Assembly: GCA_025350525.1 (NCBI GenBank)
Contig: JANXXR010000364.1
Coordinates: 1 to 37,581 of the forward strand
DNA length: 37,581 bases
Source of the DNA: Deltaproteobacteria bacterium
Lineage (GTDB): Bacteria; Myxococcota; Myxococcia; Myxococcales; 40CM-4-68-19
Reading direction: 5' to 3'
Shown: one piece after another, positions 18,077 through 35,413 of the stretch
Layout of the letters: the number at the start of each line of letters is the position of its first letter
How positions within the stretch are numbered: position 1 is the first letter of the stretch
The notes under the pieces: generated by a model
Told to the model about the DNA's origin: nothing
Seen by the model: only the letters and a program-made list of their open reading frames with translations
Databases searched by the model: none
Made by a program: the position numbers and the translations under genes

Positions 18077-19003
18077 ATGAAGACCCGCGTCAATCAAGTC
18101 ATCCTTACTCTTCTGGCCGCCTCGGCCTTTGCGCATCCGGCGTCCGCGGAAGTGATGCGGAGCAACTTCACCTACCGGCTCTCGGATTCGAACGGCGCCT
18201 TGCCGATCTCCTGGGCGACGATGAACTGGGACTCGCGCGCGGGCGAGCTCTACGTCATCGACTCGAGCAGCGGCACCGTCGATGTCTTCAACGACAACGG
18301 CATGGAGGTCTTCGCCTTCGGCAACGACTCGGGCCTGGGCACCGTCGTCGGCGCGGTGCCGATCGAGGGCGGCGACATTGTCGTGCTGGCGGTCAAGACA
18401 AAGGAGTGGTCGTTGGTGCGCTGCAACTTCCGAGGTGAGCCCATCGCGAGGATCGCGGTCAGCGGCGTGCCGGGGGGCTTCAGCCCGAGCGCGCTGCGGA
18501 CCGCGAAGGGAAAACTCTATCTCGCAGATGGGAACAACCTCATGATCGTAGAGATCGGGATCTCCGGCGCGGTCTCCGCGTCCTGGGATCTGGCGAAGCT
18601 CCTCAAGCTCGACTTGAAGAAGCGTCCCGGCAACGACCTGCGCGGCTTCAACGTCTCGCCGGACGGCAACATCCTCGGGACCATCTCGGGACTCTTCCTC
18701 GCCTTCGTCCTCACGCCCGACGGCCAGCTGCATCCGTTTGGCACGCGCGGCGGCGCGCCCGGCAAGTTCAACATCGTCGCCGGCATCGCCGCCGACGAAA
18801 CCGGCCACCTCTACGTGACCGACGTGCTGCGCGCGGTGGTGATCGTCTTCGACAAAGAGTTCAAGTTCATCGGCGAGTTCGGCTACCGCGGCTACGACGA
18901 CGACAACCTCGTCGCCCCCAACGAGGTCGCGGTGAGCAACGGCCGCGTCTTCGTCAGCCAGAGCGTCGGCGGCGTCAAGGTGTTTGAAGTCGTCTTCCAA
19001 TAG
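18077..19003 (+). CDS. NHL-repeat beta-propeller protein, exported
   Basis: ATG 18077 follows AGAGGA. Signal peptide MKTRVNQVILTLLAASAFAHPASA. Repeated blades of the type GxLYVxDxxxxxVxVF (ELYVIDSSSGTVDVF, KLYLADGNNLMIVE, HLYVTDVLRAVVIVF, RVFVSQSVGGVKVF). Confidence 0.8.
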   Translation: MKTRVNQVILTLLAASAFAHPASAEVMRSNFTYRLSDSNGALPISWATMNWDSRAGELYVIDSSSGTVDVFNDNGMEVFAFGNDSGLGTVVGAVPIEGGDIVVLAVKTKEWSLVRCNFRGEPIARIAVSGVPGGFSPSALRTAKGKLYLADGNNLMIVEIGISGAVSASWDLAKLLKLDLKKRPGNDLRGFNVSPDGNILGTISGLFLAFVLTPDGQLHPFGTRGGAPGKFNIVAGIAADETGHLYVTDVLRAVVIVFDKEFKFIGEFGYRGYDDDNLVAPNEVAVSNGRVFVSQSVGGVKVFEVVFQ

Positions 19004-19188: not shown

Positions 19189-20640
19189 ATGAAATCCCTC
19201 AAGTTTGGAACCATCCTCGTCGCCTTCGCAATGGCGACCTTCGCGTTCGCCCCAGAGGCGTTCGCCTTCCATGACGGCGGCGTCGCGTACTGCGACGGCT
19301 GCCACACGATGCACAACTCCTCCGGCGGCAAGGCGGTTGCAATCAAGGGCGCGAGCACGCAGTTCCAGGGCGTGGCCGACTTTCTCTTGCAAGGCTCCGA
19401 CCCCAGCTCGACCTGTCTCAACTGCCACGCCAGCGCGACGGGCGGCGGCTATCACATCATGACGTACCCCCTCGCGCTTACGGGCTTCCCTGCTAACACG
19501 ACGCCGGGCGGCGATTTCGCATGGCTCGGCATCGCTTCAGCCCCGGGCACCACGACCAGCTACGGCGCTCCCTTTAATAGCAAGGGCGAGCGGCATGGCC
19601 ACAACGTGGTCGCGAAAGACTACGGTATGATCGCTGACGCGACTCTCCTGACGGCTCCGGGCGGCACGTACACTGCCGCGACGCTCTCTTGCGTCAGCTG
19701 CCACGACCCACACAGCCGCGCCCGCGTCGTCGATGCGAACGGGACCATCGCCTACAACAAGCTCGGCGCGAAGACGCTGCCCATCGCCGGCTCAGGCTCC
19801 TACGGTGCGACCGCAACGGCGACCGAAGCCGTGGGCGTGTACCGCCTTCTTGGCGGCAAGAACTACGTCAACGAGGGAGCCGGCTACACGTTCGATCAAG
19901 CCGATCCGCCGGTGGCCGTCGCTCCTTCGAACTTCAACCGCACCGAGGCGGTCACTGACATGCGCGTCGCCTACGGCGCGGGCATGAGCGAGTGGTGCTC
20001 CAACTGCCACACCGCGCTCCACAACCCCAACGTCATGGCGGCCAACACCAAGCTCATCCACCCGTCGGGCGCCGGGGCGAAGCTGGCCACGAGCGCGACG
20101 GTCTGGGGCGCCCCCACGACTGAGGCGGGCATCTACAACGCCTACAAGGCCTCGGGCGACCTGACCAACACTGTGGCCACTTCGTACACCTCGTTGGTTC
20201 CGTACGAGGAGGGCACCACCGTGATCGCCACGCTGGCCGGAGACGCGTCCATGATTGGCGGCAGCGCCGCAGTTCCCGCCGTCGGTCCTGCCGGTTGCGT
20301 TCCTAACGGGACTACTTGCATTGCCGCCATTCCCGCCGTTCTGGGCCTCGCGAAGACAACCGGCCCGAGCACTGGCACCGAGAACGTCATGTGCCTGACC
20401 TGCCACCGCGCGCACGCGGGCGGCTTCGACTCCGCTACCCGCTGGCAGAACCGCGGCGAGTTCCTCACCATCGCCGGCGCCTGGCCGGGCAGCGATGCGC
20501 CGACCCTCGAGGGCAAGGGCGGGCAGTACTCGAACGGCTATACCCAGGCGCAGTACACGGCAGCCATGGGCGGTCGGTCGGCGACGAACTACGCCACCTT
20601 CCAGCGCTCGCTGTGCAACAAGTGCCACGCAAAGGACTAA
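19189..20640 (+). CDS. hexaheme c-type cytochrome, exported
   Basis: Signal peptide MKSLKFGTILVAFAMATFAFAPEAFA. Six CXXCH motifs (CDGCH, CLNCH, CVSCH, CSNCH, CLTCH, CNKCH) spread over 483 aa, with long Ala/Thr/Gly-rich heme-free stretches. Confidence 0.88.
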   Translation: MKSLKFGTILVAFAMATFAFAPEAFAFHDGGVAYCDGCHTMHNSSGGKAVAIKGASTQFQGVADFLLQGSDPSSTCLNCHASATGGGYHIMTYPLALTGFPANTTPGGDFAWLGIASAPGTTTSYGAPFNSKGERHGHNVVAKDYGMIADATLLTAPGGTYTAATLSCVSCHDPHSRARVVDANGTIAYNKLGAKTLPIAGSGSYGATATATEAVGVYRLLGGKNYVNEGAGYTFDQADPPVAVAPSNFNRTEAVTDMRVAYGAGMSEWCSNCHTALHNPNVMAANTKLIHPSGAGAKLATSATVWGAPTTEAGIYNAYKASGDLTNTVATSYTSLVPYEEGTTVIATLAGDASMIGGSAAVPAVGPAGCVPNGTTCIAAIPAVLGLAKTTGPSTGTENVMCLTCHRAHAGGFDSATRWQNRGEFLTIAGAWPGSDAPTLEGKGGQYSNGYTQAQYTAAMGGRSATNYATFQRSLCNKCHAKD

Positions 20641-20662: not shown

Positions 20663-20697
20663 GAGGAGGGTCGCGAAAGCGGCCCTCCTCTTCATTT
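20663..20697 (+). terminator. intrinsic terminator after the hexaheme cytochrome gene
   Basis: GAGGAGGGTCGC-gaaa-GCGGCCCTCCTC (12-bp stem with one G-U pair) followed by TTCATTT. It starts 23 nt after the TAA stop. Confidence 0.7.
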
Positions 20698-20821
20698 GTG
20701 GAGCACCCGGGCGGGGCATGGCCCGTGCAGTACCAGTGCAGTAGACGGTGCGAACCGAGCGCCATACCGCGGCTGCGCGCCCCGGCGAGCGCAATTGCTG
20801 CGCTGCCGCGCAAGGATTGTC

Positions 20822-22201
20822 ATGGACTTGAGGCGACCAGCGCTGGCGCTCCCGCTGCTCGCCGCCTGTTCGCTGGTCTCGCACCAGATCGCGGCCACCG
20901 CGCCGCTCGAAAACGAAGCAGAGATCTTCGTCGAGCTGCAGCCGCTGCCGGGCGACGCCGCCCGCCTCGTCTTCGAGTTGACCTCTGTCTCTGCCGTGCG
21001 GGCCGACGGGCGCGCCATGCCGCTCGAGGTCGCGCTCGACGGCGCGCCGGGCCGGCAGCGGCTGCTCGCGAGTGGCCGCGTCGAGGCGGGCACGTACACC
21101 GGCCTTGCCTTGCTCTTCAAGCGCGCCACGCTGGGCGGCTCCGACCTGCTCGTCGTCAAGGAGCCCATTCATATCGAGGCGCCGTTCGCAGTCTCGCGGC
21201 GGCGCGCGGTGGTGCTCTGGCTGACGCTGCAGCCCGCCTCGACGGACCAGCGATTCGCCTTCGCACCTTCCTTCATAGCTGCGGTGCCGGCAAAGGCCGT
21301 GGTCGCGCTCACCGCCTTCTGCTCCGACGAGGCCTCCCACCAGCTGACCATCTTCGACAAGCGCACGCGCAAGGTCACCGAGGTCCTGCCCACCGGCCGC
21401 GCGCCGTGGGGGATCGCGCTCGATCCCATCGCCAGCCGCGCCTACGTGGCGCTGGCCGAGGACGACCAGGTGGCCATCGTCGACATCGCCAACGGCGCCG
21501 AGGTCTCGCGCATCCGCCTCAACGCCGGAGACTCGCCGCGCGAACTGCTCCTCACGCCGGACCGCCGGCTGCTCCTCTCGGCCAACGCGGGCTCGAGCAC
21601 GGTGAGCCTCATCGATCCGAATTCCATGATCGAGGTCGGGCGCGTGCAGACCGGCGACGAGCCCACCTCGCTGCTCCTCGATCGCAGGGGCGCGCGGGCC
21701 TACGTCTTCAACCAGCGCTCCAGCTCGATCTCGGTCGTTGACCTCGCCACCCGCTCGGTGGTGGCGACGGTGCCCACCGAGAATGCGCCGCTGCGCGGGC
21801 AAATCGACCGCGCCGGCACACGGCTCTACGTCGCCTCGCCCAACTCGGCCTACCTCGCCGTCTACTCGCTACCCGACTTGTCGGTCGCAAAGCGCGTCTA
21901 CGTCGGCCTGGGAACCAGCGCCCTGAAAGTTGATTCCAATACCGACCTTCTTTATGTCGCCAATGGGATTGATAAGCGGCTGGCGGTCTTCGATCCCTTC
22001 TCGCTCCTGCCCATCGATTACCTGGAAGTATCGGGCGCCGTCTCGTGGATGGCCATCGACGACGCCGAGAATGCGATCTTCGTGCTCCTGCCTGACAGCC
22101 ATTCCATCGAGGCGATCCATTTGACCACCAAGAAGCCGCTCGGCGGGTTTTCCGTCGGCGCCCAGCCGCGCGTGCTGGCGCTGATAGGGGAGAGGAACTG
22201 A
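20822..22201 (+). CDS. lipoprotein with N-terminal beta-sandwich (DUF4382-like) and YVTN-type beta-propeller repeats
   Basis: ATG 20822. Lipobox LPLLAAC. Repeats of about 40 aa: PWGIALDPIASRAYVA, PRELLLTPDRRLLLSAN, PTSLLLDRRGARAYVFN, LRGQIDRAGTRLYVAS, ALKVDSNTDLLYVAN. Confidence 0.8.
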   Translation: MDLRRPALALPLLAACSLVSHQIAATAPLENEAEIFVELQPLPGDAARLVFELTSVSAVRADGRAMPLEVALDGAPGRQRLLASGRVEAGTYTGLALLFKRATLGGSDLLVVKEPIHIEAPFAVSRRRAVVLWLTLQPASTDQRFAFAPSFIAAVPAKAVVALTAFCSDEASHQLTIFDKRTRKVTEVLPTGRAPWGIALDPIASRAYVALAEDDQVAIVDIANGAEVSRIRLNAGDSPRELLLTPDRRLLLSANAGSSTVSLIDPNSMIEVGRVQTGDEPTSLLLDRRGARAYVFNQRSSSISVVDLATRSVVATVPTENAPLRGQIDRAGTRLYVASPNSAYLAVYSLPDLSVAKRVYVGLGTSALKVDSNTDLLYVANGIDKRLAVFDPFSLLPIDYLEVSGAVSWMAIDDAENAIFVLLPDSHSIEAIHLTTKKPLGGFSVGAQPRVLALIGERN

Positions 22202-22208
22202 GGCGTGG

Positions 22209-24371
22209 ATGAGAGCCCGGATCCACATCGCCTCCCTGATCGCGCTGCTTTCGGGCGGGGCGTGGGCTGAAGGGATCTCGGGCTTTGTCGACGAGAGCTA
22301 TTCGCATTCGAATTCGAGCACCACGGATCCAGCCGGCAACACGCAGCACTTCGTTTCAGACCAGCTCACCCAGAGGTATCGCCTGACGCTCGACCGAAGC
22401 TTCTTTCCGCTCCTGCGGTTCAGCGGCGGTGGCCTCTTTGAGCAGAGCAATGCCTGGCGCCCGGCGACATGGTCGCGGACGGAGAGCGCGTTTGCCAACC
22501 TCAACCTGAGCGGGCCCATCCTGAGCGGCGCCGCCGGCTACAACTACCGCGTCGAGAAGGCGAGCGTGCTCACCGGCCCGCCCCCGGCGCTGGTGATCGA
22601 GGAGCCGAGCCTGTTCGCCATCTGGCGTCCCACCGGGCTGCCGGCCTTCTCGCTGCGCTTGTCCCGGCCGCACAATTACGACACGCTTCGCGTCTCGCAG
22701 GACGTGGTGACGAACCTCGCGCTCTTCAGCGCCACCTGGTCGCCGGTCAGGCATATCGACCTGCTCTACACGGCAAGTTATGCCGAGCCGATCGATCGGC
22801 TGCACCACACCGACTCGACCTCGATCTCGCAGACCGGGCGGGTCAACTACTCCAATACCTTCGAAGGCGGCATCACGGCCGTCGCCGCCGGCGCCGAAGT
22901 CAGCAACCAGCGGTCCCACGTCTCCAGCTCGGGTCCGGGCGGCACCATCGCGACGCAGCAGGCGCCGCTCGCCGGGCTGTCGCTCGTCGAGACCTTCCCG
23001 GCCATCCCCACGCAAGACACGCTGGTCGCAAACCCTGCGCTGATCGACGGCAACACGACCGCGAGCGCGAACCTCGATCTCGGCTTTTCCGTAGCGCTCG
23101 CAGGCGACACCAACGCGCGCGACTTCGGCGTGCAGTTCCCGGATCTCCTCGGCAAGGTCAATACGTTTTATCTCTGGGTGGACCGCGAGCTCCCCGCGCA
23201 GGTCTCGGGCGCGTTCCGCTGGACGGTCTTCCAGAGCGACGACAACTTCCGCTGGACCGAGGTGCCCATCGCCGGGCCGGTGGTCTTCGGCGTCTTCCAG
23301 AACCGCTTCGAGATCACCATCGCCACCACCACCGCGCGCTTTCTCAAAGTCGTGACCAAGCCCATCGATCCCTCGGTCACCCTCGACAAGCGCTTCAGCA
23401 ACATCTTCGTCACCGAGCTTCAGCTCTTCCTCGTCACGCCGGTGGGCGCGACTGGATGGCAGTCAAACACCAGGGCCAGCTTCAACACCAGCGCGCGCAG
23501 GCAGGTCTTCTACCCCAACCTCTTTTACGACTTCGGCTCCATCCTCACCCTCGCCACCGTGCCCGGCGGGACGCCGAACTACAGCTACCTGGTCACCAAC
23601 GGCCTCTCGTACAGCCGCAGGCTGAGTCCGATCCTGCTCTTCAACTCGCGCCTGGCCCGGCAGGACCAGGGCCTCTCGCGCTCGCACGAGGGACTCTTCC
23701 TCTACAGCGCCGCGCTCGCTGCCACGCCTTTGCCGACGCTGAGCCACAACCTCGTCTACAGCGGGCAGACCATCTCCAACGCGCAGGGCTTCGGCACCAC
23801 CAACTCGCTCTCGTTTTTCAACCGGGCGACTCCGTACCGCGGCATCGGGCTGCTCGCCGGCGCGCTGGCCACCCTGGTGGGGAGCCCCAGCGGGCAGAAG
23901 CTCTTGAGCAAGGGGCTGACCTTCAATGCCTCGGTGCAGCCCAATCCCAAGCTGACGCTCGGGGGAACCTTTGCCCACTCGGACACCACCATTAGCGGCG
24001 GCGGCGGGCCCCGCAGCTCCAGCGCGTCGAACCGCATCGACGGCAGCATCTCCTTCAACCCGGTGCCGGCGTTCTACGTGTCGGCAGCCATCTCGCGCGT
24101 CATTACAAGGCCGCGGCCGCAGACGTTCGCGAGCGGCACGCTCAGCTTTTCGCCCTTTGCCGGCGGCGACCTGCAGCTCGCCATGACCTACAGCGAGACG
24201 CGGCAGCAGCCCGGAGGGACCACGCGCCTGTTCGTGCCGAGCGTGCGCTGGAACATCCGGGCCGGCACGATCCTGAGCGTCTCGTACTCGGTTCTCGACA
24301 GCGCCGCGAGCGCCGACCCCAGCCGGACCCATTCGAACACCTTCACCGCCGACTTCCAGACGGCGCTATGA
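22209..24371 (+). CDS. 720-aa outer-membrane beta-barrel protein with an internal discoidin (F5/8 type C)-like insert
   Basis: Signal peptide MRARIHIASLIALLSGGAWA. Long runs of alternating hydrophobic strands occur before residue 260 and after residue 415, ending ...FTADFQTAL. Residues 262-408 read like a discoidin domain (LIDGNTTASANLDLG, TFYLWVD, WTVFQSDDNFRWTEV, ARFLKVV, IFVTELQLF). SD GAGG lies 5 nt upstream. Confidence 0.7.
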   Translation: MRARIHIASLIALLSGGAWAEGISGFVDESYSHSNSSTTDPAGNTQHFVSDQLTQRYRLTLDRSFFPLLRFSGGGLFEQSNAWRPATWSRTESAFANLNLSGPILSGAAGYNYRVEKASVLTGPPPALVIEEPSLFAIWRPTGLPAFSLRLSRPHNYDTLRVSQDVVTNLALFSATWSPVRHIDLLYTASYAEPIDRLHHTDSTSISQTGRVNYSNTFEGGITAVAAGAEVSNQRSHVSSSGPGGTIATQQAPLAGLSLVETFPAIPTQDTLVANPALIDGNTTASANLDLGFSVALAGDTNARDFGVQFPDLLGKVNTFYLWVDRELPAQVSGAFRWTVFQSDDNFRWTEVPIAGPVVFGVFQNRFEITIATTTARFLKVVTKPIDPSVTLDKRFSNIFVTELQLFLVTPVGATGWQSNTRASFNTSARRQVFYPNLFYDFGSILTLATVPGGTPNYSYLVTNGLSYSRRLSPILLFNSRLARQDQGLSRSHEGLFLYSAALAATPLPTLSHNLVYSGQTISNAQGFGTTNSLSFFNRATPYRGIGLLAGALATLVGSPSGQKLLSKGLTFNASVQPNPKLTLGGTFAHSDTTISGGGGPRSSSASNRIDGSISFNPVPAFYVSAAISRVITRPRPQTFASGTLSFSPFAGGDLQLAMTYSETRQQPGGTTRLFVPSVRWNIRAGTILSVSYSVLDSAASADPSRTHSNTFTADFQTAL

Positions 24372-24378
24372 GGACGCC

Positions 24379-24924
24379 ATGAAGAGATACCTTCTGCTTC
24401 TCCTGCTCGCCGCCTGCGCTTCCGGGCGCAGGTACCAGGACAAGGGCATGGACTTCGCCGCCGTCCGGACGGTGGCGGTGCTGCCCTTCCAGAACCTGAC
24501 CACCGCCAACACGGCGCACGAGCGCGTGCGCGACGTCTTCTCCAACATGCTGCTCGCGACCGGCGCCCTCTACGTGCTGCCGGCCGGCGAGGTCGCGCGC
24601 GGAATCAACCGCGGCGGGGTGGCGCTGCCGAGCACGCCGTCGAAGGAAGAGTTCATCGCCATCGGCAAGATGCTCGCCGCCGACGCGGTCATCACCGGCG
24701 TCCTCAAGGAGTACGGAGAAGTCCGATCCGGGAACAGCACCGCCAACTCGATCTCGCTCAGCGTGCAGATGGTCGAGGCCGGGACCGGCAAGATCGTCTG
24801 GTCCGCCTCGACCACCAAGGGCGGGATCGGCTTCTTCGACCGCCTCCTCGGAGGCGGCGGCGACCCGATGAACAAGGTGACCGAGGATGCGGTCCATGAC
24901 CTGCTCAACCAGCTCTTTCATTGA
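24379..24924 (+). CDS. small lipoprotein, TolB-N/LpoB/DUF799-like module
   Basis: Lipobox LLLLLAAC, then AVRTVAVLPFQNLTTANTAHERVRDVFSNMLLATG. SD GAGGA lies upstream of the ATG, 7 nt after the barrel gene's stop. Confidence 0.7.
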   Translation: MKRYLLLLLLAACASGRRYQDKGMDFAAVRTVAVLPFQNLTTANTAHERVRDVFSNMLLATGALYVLPAGEVARGINRGGVALPSTPSKEEFIAIGKMLAADAVITGVLKEYGEVRSGNSTANSISLSVQMVEAGTGKIVWSASTTKGGIGFFDRLLGGGGDPMNKVTEDAVHDLLNQLFH

Positions 24925-26086
24925 GCGCGCCACGGCGCGCCTTCTCGTCGCGCGCGCGGCGGCCGTCGCGCTCCTGCTGGGGCTTGCGGGGTGCGCCGGG
25001 TCGCGCCCTGTCGCGCACAAGGAGCCTCCGGCGCTGAGCGGACCGCTGGTGCTGCTGCCGGTCGTCAACCTCAGCGGGACCAGCATTCCCCTGAGGGAAG
25101 TACAGGACGCGGTGGAGCGATCCCTGCGCGTACGCGGTATCCCGCTCGTGGACGCCGCGCTGGTCGAGCAGTTTCTCGCCCGCCACCGCCTCCGCTACAC
25201 CGGCGGAGTCGACCGCGAGGAAGCGCTGGCGGCGGGCGAGGAGCTGAGCGCCGCCGGACTTCTCGTCACCACCGTCGAGCTGTACCAGCCGGGCAACCCG
25301 CCCAAGGCCGGCATCTCCATGCGCCTCGTCTCGGCCGACGAGGCGGCGGAGGTCCGCTGGATCGACGCGGCGGCGCGCGCGGGCGACGACTCGCCCGGAC
25401 TCTTCGAGCTGGGCGTGGTCCACGAGTACCCGGAGCTCCAGGAAGTTCTTTTGGCAAAGCTCTCGGCGTCCCTCGCCCTCTCCCTCGCCGGCAAAGGCCC
25501 GCACGCGGTTGCCTGCCCCGGCAGCGGGCGCTTCGCTCCCAAGGAGCTGTTCCGCTCGCCGCGGCTGGATGCGGCGCAGACCCGGTCGGTGGCGGTGCTG
25601 CCCTTCGCCAACGAGACGGCGCGGCGCAACGCCGGGGACCTGCTCGCGCTCCAGTTCGTCCGGCAGCTCGAAGCGTCGGGCCGCTTCCGCGCCGTCGAGC
25701 CCGGCGTGCTGCGCGACGGGCTCCTGCGCTTTCGCATCATCAGCGAGGGCGGCATCTCGCTCGACGTCGCGCGGGTCATCCTCGAACTGGTGCAGGCCGA
25801 CCTGGTGGTCGCGGGCATCGTGCGCGACTACGACGATCCGGAAGGCGCCGGCGCGGCGCCGCGGGTCCAGTTCACCGCGCTCTTGCTCGACCGCGCCAAC
25901 AACGAGGTGCTGTGGGAATCGACCTCGTACAACCAGGGCGACGACGGCGTCTTCTTCTTCGACGCAGGCTTGGTGGGCACCACTCCCGACCTGGCCTGCC
26001 GCATGGTGCGCAGCGCGGTCGATGATCTGGTCGAACCGGGCCATGCGCCCGCGCCGCTGCGCTTCCCGCAAGCCGCAAAGAAGTAG
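24887..26086 (+). CDS. lipoprotein with two tandem TolB-N/LpoB/DUF799-like modules
   Basis: Lipobox LLLGLAGC. Module 1: LVLLPVVNLSGTSIPLREVQDAVERSL. Module 2: SVAVLPFANETARRNAGDLLALQFVRQL. The start is uncertain (ATG 24887 or 24896); either overlaps the previous gene. Confidence 0.65.
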   Translation: MRSMTCSTSSFIERATARLLVARAAAVALLLGLAGCAGSRPVAHKEPPALSGPLVLLPVVNLSGTSIPLREVQDAVERSLRVRGIPLVDAALVEQFLARHRLRYTGGVDREEALAAGEELSAAGLLVTTVELYQPGNPPKAGISMRLVSADEAAEVRWIDAAARAGDDSPGLFELGVVHEYPELQEVLLAKLSASLALSLAGKGPHAVACPGSGRFAPKELFRSPRLDAAQTRSVAVLPFANETARRNAGDLLALQFVRQLEASGRFRAVEPGVLRDGLLRFRIISEGGISLDVARVILELVQADLVVAGIVRDYDDPEGAGAAPRVQFTALLLDRANNEVLWESTSYNQGDDGVFFFDAGLVGTTPDLACRMVRSAVDDLVEPGHAPAPLRFPQAAKK

Positions 26087-26159
26087 CTCGCCCCGCAAAA
26101 CCTGCGCCCGTTCGCCGTCGCCACCGGGCGGCACCCCTTGCGCAGGGCGCACGGCTTGC

Positions 26160-26175
26160 TGGTGCGCTGCTTGCA
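26160..26175 (+). promoter_or_regulatory. sigma54 (-24/-12) promoter upstream of the chaperone/cytochrome operon
   Basis: TGGTGCGCTGCTTGCA has TGG at -24, GG-N10-GC spacing and TTGCA at -12. It lies 47 nt upstream of ATG 26222 (SD AAGGAG). Confidence 0.5.
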
Positions 26176-26221
26176 GAACCCCTGACGGACAGAGGCACGC
26201 ATCCGCTCAAGGAGTGTCCCG

Positions 26222-27919
26222 ATGAACCGCACCGCCATCGCTTCCCTCGCGCTCGCCGCCGGACTGGTCGCTGTCCCTTCGATTGCTTCCGCCGAAGAGC
26301 CTTATGCGCTGGTGAAGGGGCCCAACGGCATCGTCAAGGCCAAGCTCTTCTCCGAGCAGTACGCCGCGCTGCCGGTGGCGCAGATCGAGAAGGATGTCAT
26401 CACGCTGCGCGAGTTCTCCGCCGCTTTCGCCGCGACCCACCAGGAGCACGGTGCGCAGGCCAGTGGCGGCAAGAAGGATTCCTCCGCGGTGCTGGAGCGC
26501 ATCATCGACGCGCGGCTGATCGCGCTAGAGGCGCACGAGATGGGCCTCGACGAGGCGCCCGAGCTGAAGAAGGCCGTCGCCGACTACTCGGACACCGAGC
26601 TGATCGAGGTGCTCAAGTCGCGGGTCACCGGCGAGATCACGGCCGATCCGGCGCAGGTCGAGAACTACTTCCGCGACGCCGTGCGGGAGTGGAAGGTCAA
26701 GGCGCTGCTCTTCGTGAAGGAGGCGGACGCGAAGGAGATGTCAGCCGCGCTCAAGGCCGGCAAGACCTTCGCCGAGCTGACTTTGGCCGCCACCGCGGCG
26801 AAGAAGGCCACCGACAGCGGGCCGGGCGAGTTCCTCCCTCTCAAGCAGGTGCAGCCGCAAGTGCTGGCCGCACTGCAGGGACTCTTCCAGGGGCAGGTGA
26901 GCGATCCCATCAAGGTCGAGGGCGGGTGGAGCCTGCTCTTGCTAGAGGAGATTCGCTATCCCCTGGACCTGAAGGCGCGCGCTGATGCCGAAGGGCGCTC
27001 GCTCGATGAGCGCCGCGATCTGGCGCTCAAGACCTACTACGACGCGCTGGTGAAGAAGACCTGCACCACCCGGCAGAAGCTGGTGGACAAGCTCGACTTC
27101 GAAAAGAAGCGGCCTGGCTTCGAGAAGCTGGCGAAGGACAAGCGGGTGGTGGCGCGGGTGACGGGCGGAAAGGACATCACCGTCGGCGACCTGACCGAGG
27201 CGATGCGCCTGACTTTTTATCACGGCGTCGAGGAGTCGATCCGGCTCAAGCGGGTCAACGAGGCGAAGATCCCCACCTTGAACAAGATGATCTACCAGGA
27301 GGTCTTCGACACCGAAGCCAGGCGCACTAAGGTCGCCGACTCCGACGAGTACAAGCGCGCTGTCGCCGAGTACAAGGAGTCGCTGGTCTTCGGCGCCTTC
27401 GTGAAGAAGGCGGTGCTGCCGGGGCTCCAGGTCACCGAGGACGAAGGCAAGAAGTACTACGAGCAGCACAAGGCAGAGTTCGTCCTGCCCTCCTATTACA
27501 AGCTCTTCAGCCTCGCCTTTACCAAGTCAAAGGACGCGCAGCGCGCCTACGACAAGCTGAAGTCCGGCACCGACTTCAATTGGCTGAAGGCCAATGCCGA
27601 CGGCCAGATCGCCGAAGACAAGCGCACGGTGGACTTCAACGGAACTACCGTGAGCGCCAACTCCCTGCCGCACGAGCTGGTGGTCAAGCTCAAGGGAGCC
27701 AAGCCCGGCGACTATCGCCTGCAGGCCCTCGATGGCCAGAACCTGCTCATCAAGGTGCTCTCCGCCACGCCGGAGGAGCAGCAGCCTTATCTGCAAGTGC
27801 GCCCAGCCATCGGCAAGAAGCTGGCGGCGGATCTGGTCACGCAGGCCATGGCCGACTGGGTGGCGAAGTTGCGCAAGGCGCACGACGTGAAGGTCTACCT
27901 CACGCAGATTGGCAGCTGA
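26222..27919 (+). CDS. SurA-like periplasmic chaperone / parvulin-type peptidyl-prolyl isomerase (two PpiC-like domains)
   Basis: Signal peptide MNRTAIASLALAAGLVAVPSIASA. SurA-N-like helical region, then two parvulin-like segments (VKALLFVKEADAKEMSAALKAGKTFAEL...GGWSLLLLEE and YKLFSLAFTKSKDAQRAYDKLKSGTDFNWL...). Confidence 0.7.
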   Translation: MNRTAIASLALAAGLVAVPSIASAEEPYALVKGPNGIVKAKLFSEQYAALPVAQIEKDVITLREFSAAFAATHQEHGAQASGGKKDSSAVLERIIDARLIALEAHEMGLDEAPELKKAVADYSDTELIEVLKSRVTGEITADPAQVENYFRDAVREWKVKALLFVKEADAKEMSAALKAGKTFAELTLAATAAKKATDSGPGEFLPLKQVQPQVLAALQGLFQGQVSDPIKVEGGWSLLLLEEIRYPLDLKARADAEGRSLDERRDLALKTYYDALVKKTCTTRQKLVDKLDFEKKRPGFEKLAKDKRVVARVTGGKDITVGDLTEAMRLTFYHGVEESIRLKRVNEAKIPTLNKMIYQEVFDTEARRTKVADSDEYKRAVAEYKESLVFGAFVKKAVLPGLQVTEDEGKKYYEQHKAEFVLPSYYKLFSLAFTKSKDAQRAYDKLKSGTDFNWLKANADGQIAEDKRTVDFNGTTVSANSLPHELVVKLKGAKPGDYRLQALDGQNLLIKVLSATPEEQQPYLQVRPAIGKKLAADLVTQAMADWVAKLRKAHDVKVYLTQIGS

Positions 27920-27932
27920 GCAAGGACCTCCC

Positions 27933-29864
27933 ATGCGCGCCCCAGCCATCGGGATTCTCTGCGCGGTCCTGGCGCTGGCTTTCTCGGCGCGCGCCGAGCA
28001 GTTCGCGCGCAAGGAGTGTCTCGACTGCCACGCCAAGTTCGCCGACAAGCTCCACGACCTGAAAAACCTGCACGCGCCGGTGAAGTCGCAGGAGTGCGAG
28101 GAGTGCCACCTGCGCCACGGCACTGTGCCCAAGCTCCTTCTCAAGGAGAGCGGCAACGGCCTCTGCCTGACCTGCCACAAGAAGGAGAGCCTCGGCCTCG
28201 AGAAGAAGGTCGTGCACCAGGTCCTCAAGACGGGCAAGTGCATCGACTGCCACGACGCACACGGATCGAACGCGAAGGTCCTGCTCAAGCGCGAGGGCAA
28301 GCTGGAGTGCTACTCCTGCCACAAGCCGGAGCCGTTCGAGAAGAAGTTCGTCCATAAAGTCGTCGCGGACGGCGGCTGCATGGCCTGCCACACCGCGCAC
28401 GCCTCCGACCAGCAGGGCCTGCTCATCGCGGCAGAGGGACCGCTCTGCCTGAAATGCCACGCGGCGGCGGCGGCGCCGTTCCAGAAGGCCCACGGCGGCA
28501 TGCCGGTCGCGAGCAAGGCCTGCACCACCTGCCACGATCCGCACTCGTCGGACAAGGCGGGCCTGCTCAAGGCTTCGTTGCACAAGCCGCTGGTCGCCGG
28601 GGAGTGCGCCACCTGCCACGCGGCCTCAGCGGGGAAGCCGTTCGCGGTCAAGGCCGACGGCAGCAAGCTCTGCTACGGCTGCCACCTCGCCGACGGGATC
28701 GCCGACAAGGATCAGATCGCGCACGCGCCGGTGAAGAAGGGCGACTGCCTCGCCTGCCACGACCCGCACACTTCTTCCAACAAGGGCCTGCTCAAGGCCG
28801 CGGGCAACCAGCTTTGCTTCTCCTGCCACAAGGACAAGGCGCTGCCGGTCACTTCGAAGCACGCGACCGTCGCGCAGGGCTGCACCACCTGCCATCAGCC
28901 GCACGCCGCCACCAACAAGGCGCTGCTCGATGTCTCCATCGAAGCGCTCTGCGTGAAGTGCCACGTCGCCTCGACCGCCGATCAGCTCAAGGACAAGGTC
29001 GTCCATGCGCCCTTCAGGGGCGGCAAGTGCACGAGCTGCCACAACGCCCACGGCTCCAACGTCCCTGCCATCCTCAAGGAGTCGGAGGACAAGCTTTGCT
29101 ACTCCTGCCACAAGGACGCGGAGACCCGCTTCGTTAAGTCGCACACGCACAAGCCGGTGCAGAACGGGCAGTGCTCCGGCTGCCACCAGGGCCATTCGGC
29201 CGACGTGCCCAACCTGCTCAAGGCCGAAGGCGCAGCGCTTTGCGCCACCTGCCACGCAGATCTGATGAAGAAGGAGCTGGGCGGCTCGCAGCACCAGCCG
29301 TTCGCCGACGGCCAGTGCCTCACCTGCCACGATGCGCACGGCTCGAACATCCCCGGCATGACCGTGGCGGCGCAGGGCAACCTCTGCGTGCGCTGCCACG
29401 CCGTGGCGATGAAGGAGGCCGAGGGCGCCAAGAGCGTGCACGCGCCCTTCGCCAAGGCCGACTGCACCAGCTGCCACAGCCCGCACAAGTCGGGCCTGGA
29501 GATGTTGCAGCTCACCAAGGGGCCCGAGGCCTGCCTCATCTGCCACAAGGCGCTCAAGGAGAAGATCTCCGCCGGCAAGACGCACGGCCCCGCCGGGCAG
29601 GACTGCCTGCAGTGCCACCGGCCTCACGCCTCGGCCAACGCCAAGCTCGCCACGCAGGCGACGCCGCAGATCTGCAACGGGTGCCACAAGCAGCCCGACC
29701 CGAAGCTGTCGGCGGCGCACCTCGGAATCGATCTGACCAGGAGCAACTGCACCAGCTGCCACAACCCGCACGCCGGTCCGGACGCGCGGCTGATCAACAG
29801 CGTCGCGCACGAGCCATTCGAGAAGGGCAAGTGCGACGCCTGCCACACCGGAGGTGCGCTGTGA
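27933..29864 (+). CDS. 26-heme c-type cytochrome (tandem doubled-CXXCH modules), exported
   Basis: ATG 27933 (MRAPAIGILCAVLALAFSARA). I count 26 CXXCH motifs in 643 aa, arranged as about 13 repeats of LCxxCH...(V/A)HxP(V/F)xxGxCxxCHxxH(G/A)S. Confidence 0.9.
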   Translation: MRAPAIGILCAVLALAFSARAEQFARKECLDCHAKFADKLHDLKNLHAPVKSQECEECHLRHGTVPKLLLKESGNGLCLTCHKKESLGLEKKVVHQVLKTGKCIDCHDAHGSNAKVLLKREGKLECYSCHKPEPFEKKFVHKVVADGGCMACHTAHASDQQGLLIAAEGPLCLKCHAAAAAPFQKAHGGMPVASKACTTCHDPHSSDKAGLLKASLHKPLVAGECATCHAASAGKPFAVKADGSKLCYGCHLADGIADKDQIAHAPVKKGDCLACHDPHTSSNKGLLKAAGNQLCFSCHKDKALPVTSKHATVAQGCTTCHQPHAATNKALLDVSIEALCVKCHVASTADQLKDKVVHAPFRGGKCTSCHNAHGSNVPAILKESEDKLCYSCHKDAETRFVKSHTHKPVQNGQCSGCHQGHSADVPNLLKAEGAALCATCHADLMKKELGGSQHQPFADGQCLTCHDAHGSNIPGMTVAAQGNLCVRCHAVAMKEAEGAKSVHAPFAKADCTSCHSPHKSGLEMLQLTKGPEACLICHKALKEKISAGKTHGPAGQDCLQCHRPHASANAKLATQATPQICNGCHKQPDPKLSAAHLGIDLTRSNCTSCHNPHAGPDARLINSVAHEPFEKGKCDACHTGGAL

Positions 29865-31120
29865 TCGCGCTCTTGCTGGCCGCGCTGACCGCCGCCGCCG
29901 CGCCGCCGTCCGACGCCGTCCAGGCGCAGCGCTTCAAGCTCAAGCCCGGCGCCGAGGGCAAGCTCTGCCTCGATTGTCACGCGCCTTTCCAGGCCAAGCT
30001 CAAGCAGGCCTTCGTGCACACGCCGGTGAAGAGCAGCAACTGCACCGGCTGCCACAATCCGCACGCCAGCGAGCACGGCAAGCTGCTGGGCGCGGACCAG
30101 GACAAGCTCTGCGCCACCTGTCACCAGGACCTCTTGCCCGCCAAGGCGAAGAGCGTGCACCGGCCGTTCGGCGAGGGAAACTGCACCGGCTGCCACGACC
30201 CGCACGCCTCGGACAACAAGTTCGAGCTGCTCAAGCCCGGCGCGCAAGTGTGCGCGGGCTGCCACACAGCGATCGCCACCGCGACGGGGCAGGCCAAGCA
30301 CAAGCACTTCGAGCAGGGGAGGGTAGCCTGCACCACCTGCCACGAGCCGCATGCATCGGCCAAGGGCGAGCACCTGCTCAAGGGAGAAGATCCGGCGCTC
30401 TGCCTCGGCTGCCACAAGACGAACGTGGCCTTCTCCAAGGCGCATATGAGCTATCCGGTGGAGAAGGCGCGTTGCACGACCTGCCACGACCCGCACGGCT
30501 CGAGCAAGCCCGCCATGCTCTACGATACTTTGCATAAGCCGGTGGCGAGCCGGCAATGCGTCCAATGCCACGCCTTGCCCTCGTCGGCGCGGCCCTTCGA
30601 GACCAAGGCGGTGGGGACGGCGCTCTGCACCAGCTGCCACGCCGCCGAGATCACGCGAATGCTCGCCTTGCCGCAGGTGCATTGGGCCATCGCCGACGAG
30701 AAGGCGTGCCTCAATTGCCACAGCGCGCACGGCTCGCGGCAGCGCGGCCTCATCAAGGGGAACATGAAGGCGGTCTGCGCCACCTGCCATTCCGACACCA
30801 TTGCGCGGCAGGAGCGGTCGGTGACCAAGCACAAGCCGGTCGAGACAGGTGACTGCACCGCCTGCCACAGTCCGCACTCGTCGGAGACGGCGCTCTTGAT
30901 GAAGAAGGCCGATACCACCGTGATGTGCCGCACCTGTCACGACTGGCAGAAGCACGCCACGCATCCTTTGGGTGCGACGCTCAAAGACCCGCGCAACCGG
31001 AACCTGGTCCTCGATTGCCTCAGCTGCCACCGCGCCCACGGCACTGAGTTCAAGCATATGAATCCCTATCCGACGACTACGGAGCTCTGCACCAAATGCC
31101 ACGAGTCATTCAAACGATGA
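29861..31120 (+). CDS. 16-heme c-type cytochrome (tandem doubled-CXXCH modules), exported
   Basis: GTG 29861 overlaps the previous stop (GTGA), with GGAGG 6 nt upstream. An alternative GTG at 29831 would give a charged n-region (MRRLPHRRCAVIALLL...). I count 16 CXXCH motifs. The 29171..29860 part of the track ORF is out-of-frame reading of the previous gene. Confidence 0.88.
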   Translation: MIALLLAALTAAAAPPSDAVQAQRFKLKPGAEGKLCLDCHAPFQAKLKQAFVHTPVKSSNCTGCHNPHASEHGKLLGADQDKLCATCHQDLLPAKAKSVHRPFGEGNCTGCHDPHASDNKFELLKPGAQVCAGCHTAIATATGQAKHKHFEQGRVACTTCHEPHASAKGEHLLKGEDPALCLGCHKTNVAFSKAHMSYPVEKARCTTCHDPHGSSKPAMLYDTLHKPVASRQCVQCHALPSSARPFETKAVGTALCTSCHAAEITRMLALPQVHWAIADEKACLNCHSAHGSRQRGLIKGNMKAVCATCHSDTIARQERSVTKHKPVETGDCTACHSPHSSETALLMKKADTTVMCRTCHDWQKHATHPLGATLKDPRNRNLVLDCLSCHRAHGTEFKHMNPYPTTTELCTKCHESFKR

Positions 31121-31998
31121 GGCTTGTGCTGCTGCTCTGCGCGGTGTCTTTGGCCCTTCGCGCGGAGGTGCTCCCGCTCTTGCCTGCGGGCTCGGCGTAT
31201 GCGGACGCGAGCGGCGCCGCGCTCAAGGCGCCCGAGGGCGTTGCCTGCGCCGGTAAGGGCTACGTGGTCGGGGCGGACACTGGCAACGGCCGCCTGGTCA
31301 CCTGGACCTTCAAGGATGGGGCGCTCACCGGCGGCGCTCCTATCCGTTTCCCGGAGCTGGGCGCGCCGGCGCGCGTACAGATCGACAGCAAGGGCAATGT
31401 CTTCTCGCTCGACCAGCGGACGCGGCGCATCGTGCGCGTCGGCGAGCAAGGTACCTTTGCCGGGTACGTACAGCCCAAGGGCGTGCCGGCGGCGAGCGGG
31501 TTCTTTCCTGTCGCCTTCAAGCTGGACTCCGCCGACAACTTCTACCTGCTCGACATCGCCTCGGCGCGGTTGGTGGTGCTGGACCCTGCGGGCGCGTTCG
31601 TGCGGCAGCTTTTGCAGCCGGCGGGCGCGACGCTGAACGACGTCGCGGTCGATGCGCGCGGGACGGTGTTGGCGGTGGACGGCGCGCACGCGGTGGTCTA
31701 CGCGGCGAAGGTCGGCGCCGAGTCGTTGACGCCGCTCTCGAAGGGCCTGCGGGAGTATGCGAGCTTTCCCAGCTACCTATCCATCAATGCGCAAGGGCTC
31801 ATCGTGCTGGTTGATAATCACGGCAATGGGATTTTGGTGCTCGGACCCGACGGAACCTTCCTCGGCCGGCGGCTGAGCATCGGCTGGGGCGAAGGGCTGG
31901 TCTATTACCCGGGGCAGATCTGCATCGATCTGCAGGGCGATATCTTCGTGGCCGACCGGGGGAACAATCGACTGCAGGCGTTCGCGCCGGCGAAGTGA
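31117..31998 (+). CDS. NHL-repeat beta-propeller protein, exported
   Basis: ATG 31117 overlaps the cytochrome stop (ATGA). Signal peptide MRLVLLLCAVSLALRA. Blades include GYVVGADTGNGRLVTW, NVFSLDQRTRRIVRV, NFYLLDIASARLVVL, LIVLVDNHGNGILVL, DIFVADRGNNRLQAF. Confidence 0.82.
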   Translation: MRLVLLLCAVSLALRAEVLPLLPAGSAYADASGAALKAPEGVACAGKGYVVGADTGNGRLVTWTFKDGALTGGAPIRFPELGAPARVQIDSKGNVFSLDQRTRRIVRVGEQGTFAGYVQPKGVPAASGFFPVAFKLDSADNFYLLDIASARLVVLDPAGAFVRQLLQPAGATLNDVAVDARGTVLAVDGAHAVVYAAKVGAESLTPLSKGLREYASFPSYLSINAQGLIVLVDNHGNGILVLGPDGTFLGRRLSIGWGEGLVYYPGQICIDLQGDIFVADRGNNRLQAFAPAK

Positions 31999-32129: not shown

Positions 32130-33623
32130 TTGATCGTGGTGAAGAACCCCGCCACCCGCGACCTGTCACGCCTGGGAGAAGTGCTCCTCTCGCCCGACTG
32201 GATGCCGCCTTACTACCGGCCCCTCAATCGGGCCTCTTATCTGATTGATTATCACCTCTGGGGGATGAATCCGCTCGGCTTTCATGCGGTGAACCTGGTT
32301 CTGGCTATCGGCTGCGTCCTCGCGATGTATGCGCTGGCCCGACGGGTGTTTGACTGCCGGGCTCCGGCATTCGTGGCCGCGGCGCTGCTGGCCGTCCATC
32401 CCATCAGCGTCGAGGCGGTCGCGTTCGTGACGGCCCGCAACAACCTCTTCGCGCTTCTCTTCGCGCTGCTGCCTCTGACCGCCTTCATCGACGCGTCCCG
32501 GCGCGATTCGTTGCGCCTGGCCTGGCTCTCGGGCTTCGCGTTTTTTCTCGGGCTCCTCTCCAAGGAGCCGGCCTTGATGGTCCTGCCGCTCATGGCGGCG
32601 CTGCTGGTGCTTCCGTCGCTGCGACCGCGGCGCCCTGATCGGCGATCGCTCCTGCTGCTCGCCCCGCACGTCGCGGCGGCGTCGGTCTGGCTCGCGCTCC
32701 GCGCCATTGCGATGTCGCACGCGGCCGCCACGCCGGAACTTGCCGCGACCCCCCTGCTCCAGCGCCTGGCGCTCAACTATTCCGTGATTCCACGCTACCT
32801 GCTGCTCATCCTCTTTCCGCGCGACCTCTCCAACTTTCACGCCGCGCCGCCGCCCGGCCTCCTCTCCAACGGATGGCTACCGCTGGCCTGGCTGACGATC
32901 GCTGCCGGACTCATCTGGCTCGTGCGCCATCGGTCCGTCCCGATCACCGTCGGGCTCCTCTGGTTCGCCGCCAACCTGTTCCCGATCGCCCAGATCGTCC
33001 CCCTGCCGACCAGCACTCCCTTCGCCGAGCGGTACATCTTCTTCTCGTGCGTGGGGCTCTTTCCGATCGCCGCCGAGCTTTTCCGGCGCGGCCAGGCGAG
33101 CTCGCACCGGCTGCTGACCCTGGGTGTCACGGCGGCCGCTCTCCTCGCGCTCGGCGCGCGCACGTTTGCGCGCACGCTGGACTGGCACGACGACCTCGCC
33201 TTGACCCGGAGCGCGGTGGCGGTGGAGCCCCGCTCGGCTCGAGCCCATTTCAACCTGGGAGTCGTGCTGAAGGATCGCGACGATCTGCCCGGCGCGGTGC
33301 GCGAGTGGGAGACCGCGCTGACCCTGGAGCCGTCCGACGCCGAAAGCCATGCCCAGCTCGGCACCGCGGCGGCCGTCCGCGGCGACTTCGACGCCGCAGA
33401 GCACCATTACCGGGCCGCAGTCGCCTCTGACCCCATGCTGTCGCTGGCTTGGTTCAACCTCGGGCGGCTGCTCGACAAGACCGGGCGCTTTCCGGAGGCG
33501 ATCGATTGCTATTCGACCTACCTTGAGAGCGCCCTTCCGGACTCGGACCCCCACGTGGCCGTGGCCCGCGAACGGCTCTCGGTGCTTGGCGCGGCATCAG
33601 TTGCTCGCGGCGGCGTGGAGTGA
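32130..33623 (+). CDS. TMTC/PMT-like GT-C membrane protein with C-terminal TPR repeats; open part only, the gene appears interrupted by an in-frame TGA at 32118..32120
   Basis: Multi-TM N-terminal half and a TPR C-terminus (AHFNLGVVLKDRDDLPGAVREWETALTLEP, AWFNLGRLLDKTGRFPEAIDCY). A 40-codon in-frame segment from ATG 31998 (overlapping the NHL stop, TGATG) supplies TM1 and the GGFV part of the FVxDD motif, then hits TGA. Confidence 0.7.
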   Translation: MIVVKNPATRDLSRLGEVLLSPDWMPPYYRPLNRASYLIDYHLWGMNPLGFHAVNLVLAIGCVLAMYALARRVFDCRAPAFVAAALLAVHPISVEAVAFVTARNNLFALLFALLPLTAFIDASRRDSLRLAWLSGFAFFLGLLSKEPALMVLPLMAALLVLPSLRPRRPDRRSLLLLAPHVAAASVWLALRAIAMSHAAATPELAATPLLQRLALNYSVIPRYLLLILFPRDLSNFHAAPPPGLLSNGWLPLAWLTIAAGLIWLVRHRSVPITVGLLWFAANLFPIAQIVPLPTSTPFAERYIFFSCVGLFPIAAELFRRGQASSHRLLTLGVTAAALLALGARTFARTLDWHDDLALTRSAVAVEPRSARAHFNLGVVLKDRDDLPGAVREWETALTLEPSDAESHAQLGTAAAVRGDFDAAEHHYRAAVASDPMLSLAWFNLGRLLDKTGRFPEAIDCYSTYLESALPDSDPHVAVARERLSVLGAASVARGGVE

Positions 33624-35413
33624 TCAGGCTTTATGCTACGAGCCCATCGATGCTGACGCAGGCCGGGCGCCGGGGCGCAGTCCTCGTGATGGCGGCAGCG
33701 ATTGCGTATATTCCGGCATTGCGGGGCGGGTTCGTCTTCGATGATCACATGATTATCGAGGGCGGCCGCCTTCTTCGCGGTCCGCTCTGGCGAGTCTGGC
33801 TGACGACCACTACGGCCGACTACTGGCCGCTGACGCGGACGTGCTTCTGGGTGCAATGGCGCGTGTGGGGATTGCATGCGTGGGGTTACCACGCTGTCAA
33901 CATCCTGCTGCACATCGCCGCCGCGATCCTCGTTTGGCGCGTGCTCCGGCGCCTTCATATGCCGGGCGCATGGATCGCCGGGCTTCTCTTCGCGGTTCAT
34001 CCCGCCACGGTCGAATCGGTCGCCTGGATTTCAGAGACCAAGAACACGCTCTCTGGCGTACTTTTCTTGGGGTCGATCCTGGCCTGGATCCGGTTCGACG
34101 AGGAAGGTGACCGGCGTTCGTACGCAATCTCGTTGTCGCTCTTTGCGCTCGCCGCACTCGCCAAGGCCTCCGTCGTCATGTTGCCGCTCGTTCTCCTTGG
34201 TGTCGCGCTCGCCCAACGCGGCCGGCTCAGGCGGAGGGACTACGAGACCACCGCCCCCTTCTTCGCCGTGGCGCTGGTTGCCGGCTTCGTCAACCTCTGG
34301 TTTCAGCGTCACAACGCGATGGCGGGTGGCTGGGCAGTGTCTCGTGGCGTTGGGCAGCGGGTCGGCGAATCGGCCTGGGCGCTGACGACGTATCTGCGGA
34401 ATGCATTCATCCCTGTCCGTCTGGGATTCGTCCACGAGCCGTGGACGGTCGGACCGGACTCCCCATTGCTTTTCTATGCGCCGCTCCTGGCGATGGCGGC
34501 GGCGCTGGCGCTCCTGGTCACGCTGCGCGCGCGTTCCCGGCTCGCTCGCGCCGCGCTGTACGCGACCGGCTATCCCGTGCTGATGTTGCTTCCGGTGCTG
34601 GGTGTTCTGGATATCGCCTATTTCAGCGTCGGGCCGGTTTCGAACCACCTCCAGTATCTGGCGCTGATCGGGCCGGTTGCGCTGCTGGGGACTGGGATGG
34701 CCTGGATCACGGAGCGCGAACTCGTCACCGCGACTGTCGCAGTGGCGGTGGCGGTCGCGCTTGGAGTGGTGACCTTCCAGCGCGCCACGGAATTCGAGAA
34801 TGACCTGACGCTCTGGACCGGTGCCGTCCGCGCTGCGCCCGGCAGCGCCTATGCGCATAACCAGCTCGCCAGTATTGATCAGGAGCGTGGCAATCGGGCG
34901 GGGGCCCTCGACGAACTGCTCGCGACTGCGCGCCTCTCCAGCGCCCCCGCCGACCACCACCGCTACATGGGCTTGTGGTTTCTCTTCTCCGACCGGCCGA
35001 GCGAAGCGATCGATGAGGCGCGGGAAGTCCTGCGCACCGCTCGGGATCCAGAGGCCCGCCGCGACGCAGCGTGGGTGCTGACGCAGACCGGGCAACATGC
35101 GGAGACGTTGCCCGTCTTCCGTTCGCTTGTCAGCGAGGCGCCGAACGGCTCGGACTACACGTATTGGCTCGGCGCAGTGCTCGCGCGCGAGGAAAAGATT
35201 CCGGAGGCGGCTGAGGTGCTCCGAGGCTTTTGCCGCGTGCGCCCAGGCGACCCGCAGATGGAGGAAGCCTTGGCGATCCTGCTCGTGCGCTTGGGATTCG
35301 TTGACGAGGCTCCTCAGCACGCCGGAGCCGCGGCCGGCGTGACGGCTCGAGATCCTCGTGCGGCGGCGCAACTGGCGGCTTGGATCCAGAAGGCGGGGAT
35401 GCCGCCCTTGTAG
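33620..35413 (+). CDS. TMTC/PMT-like GT-C membrane protein with C-terminal TPR repeats (intact paralogue)
   Basis: GTG 33620 overlaps the previous stop (GTGA). N-terminus ...AIAYIPALRGGFVFDDHMII carries the FVFDD loop-1 motif. About 10 TM segments, then TPR-like helices. Confidence 0.8.
   Translation: MIRLYATSPSMLTQAGRRGAVLVMAAAIAYIPALRGGFVFDDHMIIEGGRLLRGPLWRVWLTTTTADYWPLTRTCFWVQWRVWGLHAWGYHAVNILLHIAAAILVWRVLRRLHMPGAWIAGLLFAVHPATVESVAWISETKNTLSGVLFLGSILAWIRFDEEGDRRSYAISLSLFALAALAKASVVMLPLVLLGVALAQRGRLRRRDYETTAPFFAVALVAGFVNLWFQRHNAMAGGWAVSRGVGQRVGESAWALTTYLRNAFIPVRLGFVHEPWTVGPDSPLLFYAPLLAMAAALALLVTLRARSRLARAALYATGYPVLMLLPVLGVLDIAYFSVGPVSNHLQYLALIGPVALLGTGMAWITERELVTATVAVAVAVALGVVTFQRATEFENDLTLWTGAVRAAPGSAYAHNQLASIDQERGNRAGALDELLATARLSSAPADHHRYMGLWFLFSDRPSEAIDEAREVLRTARDPEARRDAAWVLTQTGQHAETLPVFRSLVSEAPNGSDYTYWLGAVLAREEKIPEAAEVLRGFCRVRPGDPQMEEALAILLVRLGFVDEAPQHAGAAAGVTARDPRAAAQLAAWIQKAGMPPL

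Follow-up and report, generated by a model that had tools for sequence, protein, structure and literature searches.

On how cytochrome nanowires cross the outer membrane and stay attached to it, the literature goes no further than a large beta-barrel, which accompanies a propeller lipoprotein in the OmcE and OmcS gene regions and has been described as a 'secretion pore or anchor' (PMC13712944). The same work reports adjacent glycosylation clusters (GT2/4/39 and tetratricopeptide repeat (TPR) proteins) and probable glycosylation of OmcE. In Geobacter sulfurreducens, the companion genes of OmcS make up the osc (omcS-companion) operon of Shen et al. 2025 (Cell Chem Biol 32:239), which passages of PMC13194489 cite for the roles of its products in OmcS nanowires: OscH in their folding, the 'channel-like' OscE/F/G in their secretion, and OscD in their morphology. 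The same passages give oscC as GSU2501, oscI as GSU2495 and oscJ as GSU2494. Here, we have examined a 37,581-nucleotide stretch of a Myxococcota metagenome-assembled genome (MAG), contig JANXXR010000364.1 of assembly GCA_025350525.1 (hereafter the window), in which an initial annotation had singled out the gene at 22209..24371 on the forward strand as an outer-membrane barrel interrupted by a discoidin-like module, and had regarded such an insert as unusual for a porin associated with cytochromes. Judged by sequence and gene order, this gene is an OscE-type barrel of an OmcS-nanowire osc cluster, and the insert is instead an invariant hallmark of this family of large barrels.

Other systems resemble this one to varying degrees. 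A core of propeller, 16-haem cytochrome, 26-haem cytochrome and peptidyl-prolyl isomerase (PPIase) was described in SEEP-SRB1, Geobacter and Anaeromyxobacter, where no recognisable porin was found (Skennerton et al., PMC5539420), and Murali et al. named the OetABI conduit with its barrel OetI (PMC10553843). The window has this four-gene core, including the six-bladed propeller, in common with the OetABI/SEEP-SRB1 operon (PMC10553843, PMC5539420), but the literature reads that operon as an electron conduit and not as a nanowire assembly machine, and OetI is likened to the window barrel by description only. For UetC, the barrel of the Uet cluster of Candidatus Tenderia electrophaga, 28 strands and a pore of ~5 nm are predicted, and it adjoins a PPIase, NHL proteins and a doubled-CXXCH cytochrome (bioRxiv 10.1101/2022.05.06.490989); unlike the window barrel, it has no reported discoidin insert and is accompanied by a different cytochrome set, and its likeness too is by description only. 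MtrB of MtrCAB (6r2q), the best structural match of the window barrel by template modelling (TM) score, likewise serves a multihaem-cytochrome system as a very large barrel in the outer membrane. Its 26 strands are not interrupted by an inserted domain, long loops close its mouth, and its sequence shows no detectable similarity to that of the window barrel. In the chaperone-usher pores PapC and FimD, which are large secretion barrels for the mounting of a polymer, two neighboring strands have a beta-sandwich plug domain encoded between them. This plug differs from the module described here in being periplasmic or luminal and of a different fold, whereas the window module is attached at the extracellular rim.

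Counting locus tags from those given in PMC13194489 equates OscD with the propeller, OscE with the barrel (taken as GSU2499), OscF/G with the lipoproteins and OscH with the PPIase, and the gene order of the window is exactly the osc order derived in this way: OmcS-like cytochrome, propeller, barrel, two lipoproteins, PPIase, 26-haem cytochrome, 16-haem cytochrome and NHL protein. The barrel gene lies between the gene for the propeller lipoprotein and those for the two lipoproteins, and two genes upstream of it is a hexahaem OmcS homologue (19189..20640, forward strand, six CXXCH motifs), a candidate nanowire subunit that matches OmcS (PDB 6ef8/6nef) with a phmmer E value of 1.1e-94 in an alignment starting at mature residue 1. 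The Geobacter barrel is homologous: a protein of Geobacter sp. H2geo (L014:3876-6158) is a full-length match to the family profile (E 2.5e-193), although the window barrel is only 27-33% identical to the Geobacter barrel. The same ten genes in the same order accompany homologues down to 31% barrel identity. A wider synteny comparison, for which the 26-haem cytochrome served as bait, recovered the ten-gene order in a Geobacter MAG, three Nitrospirota MAGs and other Anaeromyxobacteraceae, with the insert at the equivalent place in every barrel. Within the cluster, identity is lowest for the barrel (27-32%) and reaches 48-61% for the first lipoprotein and the large cytochromes. The window gene is therewith a further member of an already known barrel family and of published machinery, and the system itself is not new; what had looked like a porin with an odd insert is the regular OscE-type barrel that an osc cluster carries, here in a Myxococcota MAG, and the result is mostly one of clarification.

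Three observations concern the wider set of loci. Where related large cytochromes occur in Bacillota and Carboxydocellales, the barrel is missing from the locus, as it should be if these organisms lack an outer membrane. At three loci (L022, L023 and L025, from Zixibacteria, Bacillota and Carboxydocellales), one long open reading frame (ORF) takes in the relatives of both the 26-haem and the 16-haem cytochrome, and the flanks yielded no barrel, lipoproteins or PPIase. Finally, in one Nitrospirota locus ~1.4 kb separates the barrel gene from the first lipoprotein gene (L017:4448-5821), genes that abut in all other loci, and this spacer may be an insertion.

The barrel gene is preceded by an GGAGAGGA that resembles a ribosome-binding site, and it encodes a protein of 720 amino acids (aa) whose residues 1-20 are a signal peptide (cleavage between …GGAWA and EG). 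The initial annotation had proposed a large beta-barrel on both flanks of the insert, and an AlphaFold2 model of the full-length protein agrees, with a predicted local distance difference test (pLDDT) score of 88.4, a predicted TM (pTM) score of 0.64 and long antiparallel strands throughout both flanks. DSSP assignment of this model, together with alternating hydrophobicity across the family, gives strands β1-β11 before the insert (residues 23-240, 22275..22928) and, with the comparison of loop and turn lengths as additional evidence, strands β12-β28 after it (residues 415-719, 23451..24365), a count of 11 plus 17, or 28. The protein has the signal peptide, the even number of antiparallel amphipathic strands, the short conserved periplasmic turns and the hydrophobic C-terminal strand of an outer-membrane beta-barrel, and with high confidence it is predicted to be one of 28 strands, with a lumen of roughly 5 nm. 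It has no Pfam or NCBIfam match of its own, and a phmmer search of the PDB gave no match to the protein and no solved structure for the family. The best PDB match by TM-score is MtrB (6r2q_B, TMq 0.40 / TMt 0.44), and TonB-dependent receptors also match the model often, the similarity being that of a generic barrel. Features that would place the protein in the MtrB/PioB family are lacking: there is no Pfam match and no decahaem MtrA-type neighbor, and the TM-score of ~0.4 reflects generic barrel similarity only.

Within the barrel proper, the best-conserved sites are Pro-rich periplasmic turns (RPxxLP, PLPTL, SPFPxG) at residues 140-145, 509-510, 544-545 and 648-654 (22626-22643, 23733-23738, 23838-23843 and 24150-24170), and these turns may make up a ring on which the two lipoproteins or cargo dock.

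The middle segment of the protein is confirmed as a folded discoidin-type (galactose-binding-like) domain, because Pfam matches of its homologues, profile matches in the PDB and the structure of the segment folded in isolation all lead to the same assignment. The initial annotation had named this domain from a handful of peptide strings, all of which are present in the translation of 22209..24371. Although the window protein itself goes unmatched in Pfam, PF22633 (F5_F8_type_C_2) is matched by 10 of 48 diverse homologues, with a best E value of 4e-6, and PF00754 by 4 of the 48. Searching the PDB with a profile of the insert returned only CBM32 and F5/8 type C chains, led by YeCBM32 (2jd9, E 0.075) and followed by 4lks, 2kd7 and 3ggl, all of them aligned on the S.D.N.W…ARYLKV stretch and all at E 0.075 or higher. 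Residues 241-416 folded alone reached a pLDDT of 94.6 and a pTM of 0.89, with ~8 strands by DSSP, and Foldseek matched this isolated module to CBM32, F5/8 type C and APC10/DOC domains (probability 1.00, E values of 1e-4 to 1e-3, target-normalised TM up to 0.58). The module has the eight-stranded jelly roll with adjacent N- and C-termini, which it has in common with the CBM32 and F5/8 type C domains of YeCBM32 (2jd9), CpGH89 (4a44) and AlyQ (7d29), and it has their motif pattern of …IDGN.., S.D.N..W, ..YLKV.. and ..TELQ... It differs from them in that its match in the window protein lies under the Pfam threshold, and in that it is embedded in a loop of a membrane barrel and not appended to an enzyme. 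We take D280/N282 and T402/E403 to occupy the usual metal-ligand positions of the CBM32-type fold, and the usual binding loops of that fold presumably lie opposite the N- and C-termini of the module, and so away from the barrel rim. As to its limits, the earlier boundaries of 22990-23435 (residues 261-409) were roughly right, but the actual span is slightly wider, at residues ~246-411 (22944..23441, forward strand).

The side of the membrane on which the module lies was inferred from strand parity, the hydrophobic belt and the asymmetry of insertions and deletions, and not from model coordinates. With both termini of the barrel in the periplasm, the end of β11 and the start of β12 fall on the far side, whether strands are counted from the N-terminus or from the C-terminus. 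Family-averaged hydrophobicity places the alternating, lipid-facing belt next to the side of the termini, and the strands are polar towards their far ends, above all β10, β11 and β12, which are 18 residues long and carry the insert. Among 48 homologues, the turns on the terminal side are constant in length and better conserved, and all length variation is confined to the loops opposite the termini, which is the side with the insert. Constant turns on one side and variable loops on the other are the classical pattern of periplasmic turns and extracellular loops. These three lines agree and place the module in extracellular loop 6, between β11 and β12. It is tethered there by linkers of just 5 and 3 residues, and as every other extracellular loop is 7 aa or shorter, it is the sole large extramembrane element of the barrel chain. 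Residues 246-260 and 400-411 belong to the module and not to the barrel wall, since homologues have polar or charged residues there and both segments are still beta-paired in the isolated module. An alternative topology of 30 strands, which would put the module at a periplasmic turn, was considered and rejected on the grounds that these two segments are not lipid-facing, are charged in homologues and keep their beta-pairing when the module is folded alone. The initial annotation had left a choice between surface display and a plug: attachment at the extracellular rim is supported, which makes either surface display or a lid over the lumen plausible.

A word-based search retrieved 164 homologues of 700-750 aa, and an exhaustive profile search retrieved 1,473 representative clusters at E ≤ 1e-3, of which 845 remained at E ≤ 1e-30; the top 150 profile matches are all full length. 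Comparing homologues with and without the insert had been suggested at the outset, and the insert is in all of them: no insert-free homologue was seen among all matches examined, a set of ~1,470 representative clusters with Anaeromyxobacteraceae, Geobacteraceae and Nitrospirota among them. Three shorter matches (P0114, P0093 and P0047) were checked for loss of the insert, and all three keep it and look truncated or frameshifted. The discoidin insert is an invariant feature of the barrel family. It finds no mention in the literature searched on related clusters, a search that did not extend to Shen et al. 2025. Within the subfamily of the window, the Anaeromyxobacter type, the insert is the best-conserved segment of the protein, with a column identity of 0.54-0.65 compared with 0.31-0.53 for most of the barrel. 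The module residues that are invariant across phyla are fold-determining rather than surface residues, and insertions and deletions within the module fall in its loops.

The family is widespread in soils and sediments, with ~1,470 representative clusters, but its distribution within Myxococcota is patchy. It was found in 27 of 301 Myxococcota genomes, almost all of one family, with none in the window's own family, and 21 of 61 Geobacteraceae genomes have full-length matches. Seen from the window, the barrel occurs in none of the ~7 genomes of its own family or genus and in most genomes of a neighboring family of the same order. This patchiness suggests that the cluster was acquired horizontally. 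In several genomes (G085, G198, G237 and G165) and at L018:4046-6263, the barrel gene is broken up into 2-4 successive reading frames, the result either of frameshifts in a pseudogene or of faulty assembly of high-GC MAGs. Genome G188, of the same order as the window, has a divergent paralogue (L012:9589-11814) that is detectable by BLAST in the insert only (31% identity, E 1e-12), and this paralogue too lies between multihaem cytochromes and a GNA1162/LpoB-type lipoprotein plus a PPIase. The surrounding region (L012:3765-15587) is a divergent second type of cluster, which encodes three smaller multihaem cytochromes, a barrel of 741 aa that has the insert, a single lipoprotein that is a fused double GNA1162/LpoB, and a PPIase. 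A search with this paralogue found only 5 relatives in a large protein collection.

For the function of the module, we infer a role at the mouth of the channel. As has been proposed in Geobacter, the 28-strand barrel and the two downstream lipoproteins at the OscF/G positions would jointly provide a channel for the arrival of OmcS-type cytochrome filaments at the surface, whether they pass through it or stand on it. The module stands on the tallest part of the barrel wall, at loop 6, held close by its very short linkers, where it could serve as an outer cap that partly closes an otherwise loop-less channel mouth and as a docking or holding site for the emerging filament, for a filament glycan or for the propeller lipoprotein. 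We regard this reading of a cap with a docking function as moderately probable. In its favor are the conservation of the insert, which is highest in the subfamily of the window, is all that BLAST recognises in the divergent paralogue and extends to every homologue seen, together with the OmcS homologue two genes upstream and the shared ten-gene synteny. Its capping part is favored because a 28-strand barrel without long loops needs its mouth closed or filled, and the module is the only candidate in the chain; its docking part is favored because the fold is a ligand-binding one whose usual binding loops would lie opposite the termini and away from the rim. Several points weigh against it. A lid, an outward projection and a module folded into the lumen would all fit the sequence-based placement, and the pTM of the full-length model is only 0.64. 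Across phyla the module (27-33% identity) and the barrel (24-28%) are about equally diverged, and the variable surface loops of the module offer no evident, universally conserved partner surface; the divergence between phyla, the fold-determining nature of the invariant residues and the loop insertions and deletions together argue against one universal partner surface. In addition, orthology to GSU2499 was drawn from the Geobacter MAG and gene order and not from the GSU2499 sequence itself. A narrower version would make the module a true lectin for O-glycans that the GT-C/TPR (GT39-like) transferases put on the nanowire subunit or the propeller lipoprotein, with glycan-lectin contact priming and holding filaments at the mouth and the variable loops setting which filament or glycan is accepted. 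The GT-C/TPR genes beside clusters in several genomes allow such a contact without showing it, and we consider this version quite improbable.

The cytochromes of the cluster give some weight to a different role for the barrel, namely as the sheath of a porin-cytochrome conduit like those of MtrB, PCC3, OetI and UetC, with the 26-haem cytochrome threading the barrel and the module docking the extracellular 16-haem cytochrome. Both large cytochromes are co-conserved with the barrel, MtrB is its best TM-score match, the PCC3 conduits combine a periplasmic cytochrome of 21-27 haems and an extracellular one of 10-35 haems with a porin, UetC is a predicted 28-strand barrel beside PPIase and NHL proteins, and the 26/16-haem operon lacked a porin in the survey of Skennerton et al. 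(PMC5539420). However, the barrel is unrelated in sequence to the MtrB/PioB family, a lipobox is missing from both large cytochromes, and the genetics cited in passages of PMC13194489 place OscE/F/G in OmcS secretion. The barrel gene is also coupled to the propeller and lipoprotein genes, with the large cytochromes following only after a promoter gap at 26086-26222, and we give the conduit sheath a small but real chance. Were the module simply a cis gate that closes the wide barrel when it has no cargo, like the chaperone-usher plug and with no specific ligand, its standing as the only sizeable extramembrane element would be accounted for, as nothing else in the chain can occlude a 28-strand lumen, the linker SGPGG, short and rich in Gly, could serve as a hinge, and the invariance of fold-determining rather than surface residues would be natural. 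Such a gate is nevertheless unlikely: the usher plug is periplasmic and the module is attached extracellularly, at the rim, sealing of the channel could fall to the two lipoproteins or to the cargo, and a plain plug would not need a full CBM32-type fold with its DG…, S.D..W and …TELQ motifs. The same fold, from which binding loops are expected to point away from the barrel, and the variation of these loops between phyla would suit an outward adhesin or lectin, in line with the attachment role put forward in the initial annotation; its target could be a polysaccharide, the surface of a partner cell or a mineral-associated organic layer. Within the subfamily, though, the module is more conserved than the barrel, a better fit to a partner of the cell's own than to a variable environmental target, and an adhesin seems very improbable. 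The cap, sheath, gate and adhesin roles are not mutually exclusive. An invariant rim domain of a ligand-binding fold is a precise and easily mutated candidate for an exit, anchor or gate site.

The remaining genes of the cluster are all on the forward strand. The conserved cluster starts with an exported NHL-repeat protein (18077..19003), which is followed by the OmcS homologue and then, at the OscD position, by a YNCE-like beta-propeller lipoprotein (20822..22201, lipobox LLAAC) whose stop lies 7 nucleotides before the ATG of the barrel gene. The propeller ORF extends over 20696-22201, and its start is probably the ATG at 20822 (MDLRRPALALPLLAAC…, with the lipobox) rather than the TTG at 20696. 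Downstream of the barrel are a GNA1162/LpoB-like lipoprotein at the OscF position (24379..24924, 52-61% identity across phyla), a second LpoB-like lipoprotein at the OscG position (24887..26086), a SurA-like PPIase chaperone at the OscH position (26222..27919), the 26-haem doubled-CXXCH cytochrome at the OscI position (27933..29864) and the 16-haem cytochrome at the OscJ position (29831..31120). For this last gene, the GTG at 29831 is the most likely start, with a signal peptide (MRRLPHRR…) and an overlap with the end of the 26-haem gene; the alternative GTG at 29861 has GGAGG 6 nucleotides upstream. A second NHL-repeat protein (31096..31998) is followed by two GT-C (PMT_2) plus TPR membrane glycosyltransferase-like genes (32130..35413), homologues of which adjoin related clusters in several genomes but not in all. 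Elsewhere in the window, on the reverse strand, a 1287-aa ORF at 4978-8841 matches HypD over its last ~350 residues only; it is probably an over-extended frame in high-GC sequence, and the real hypD is likely much shorter.

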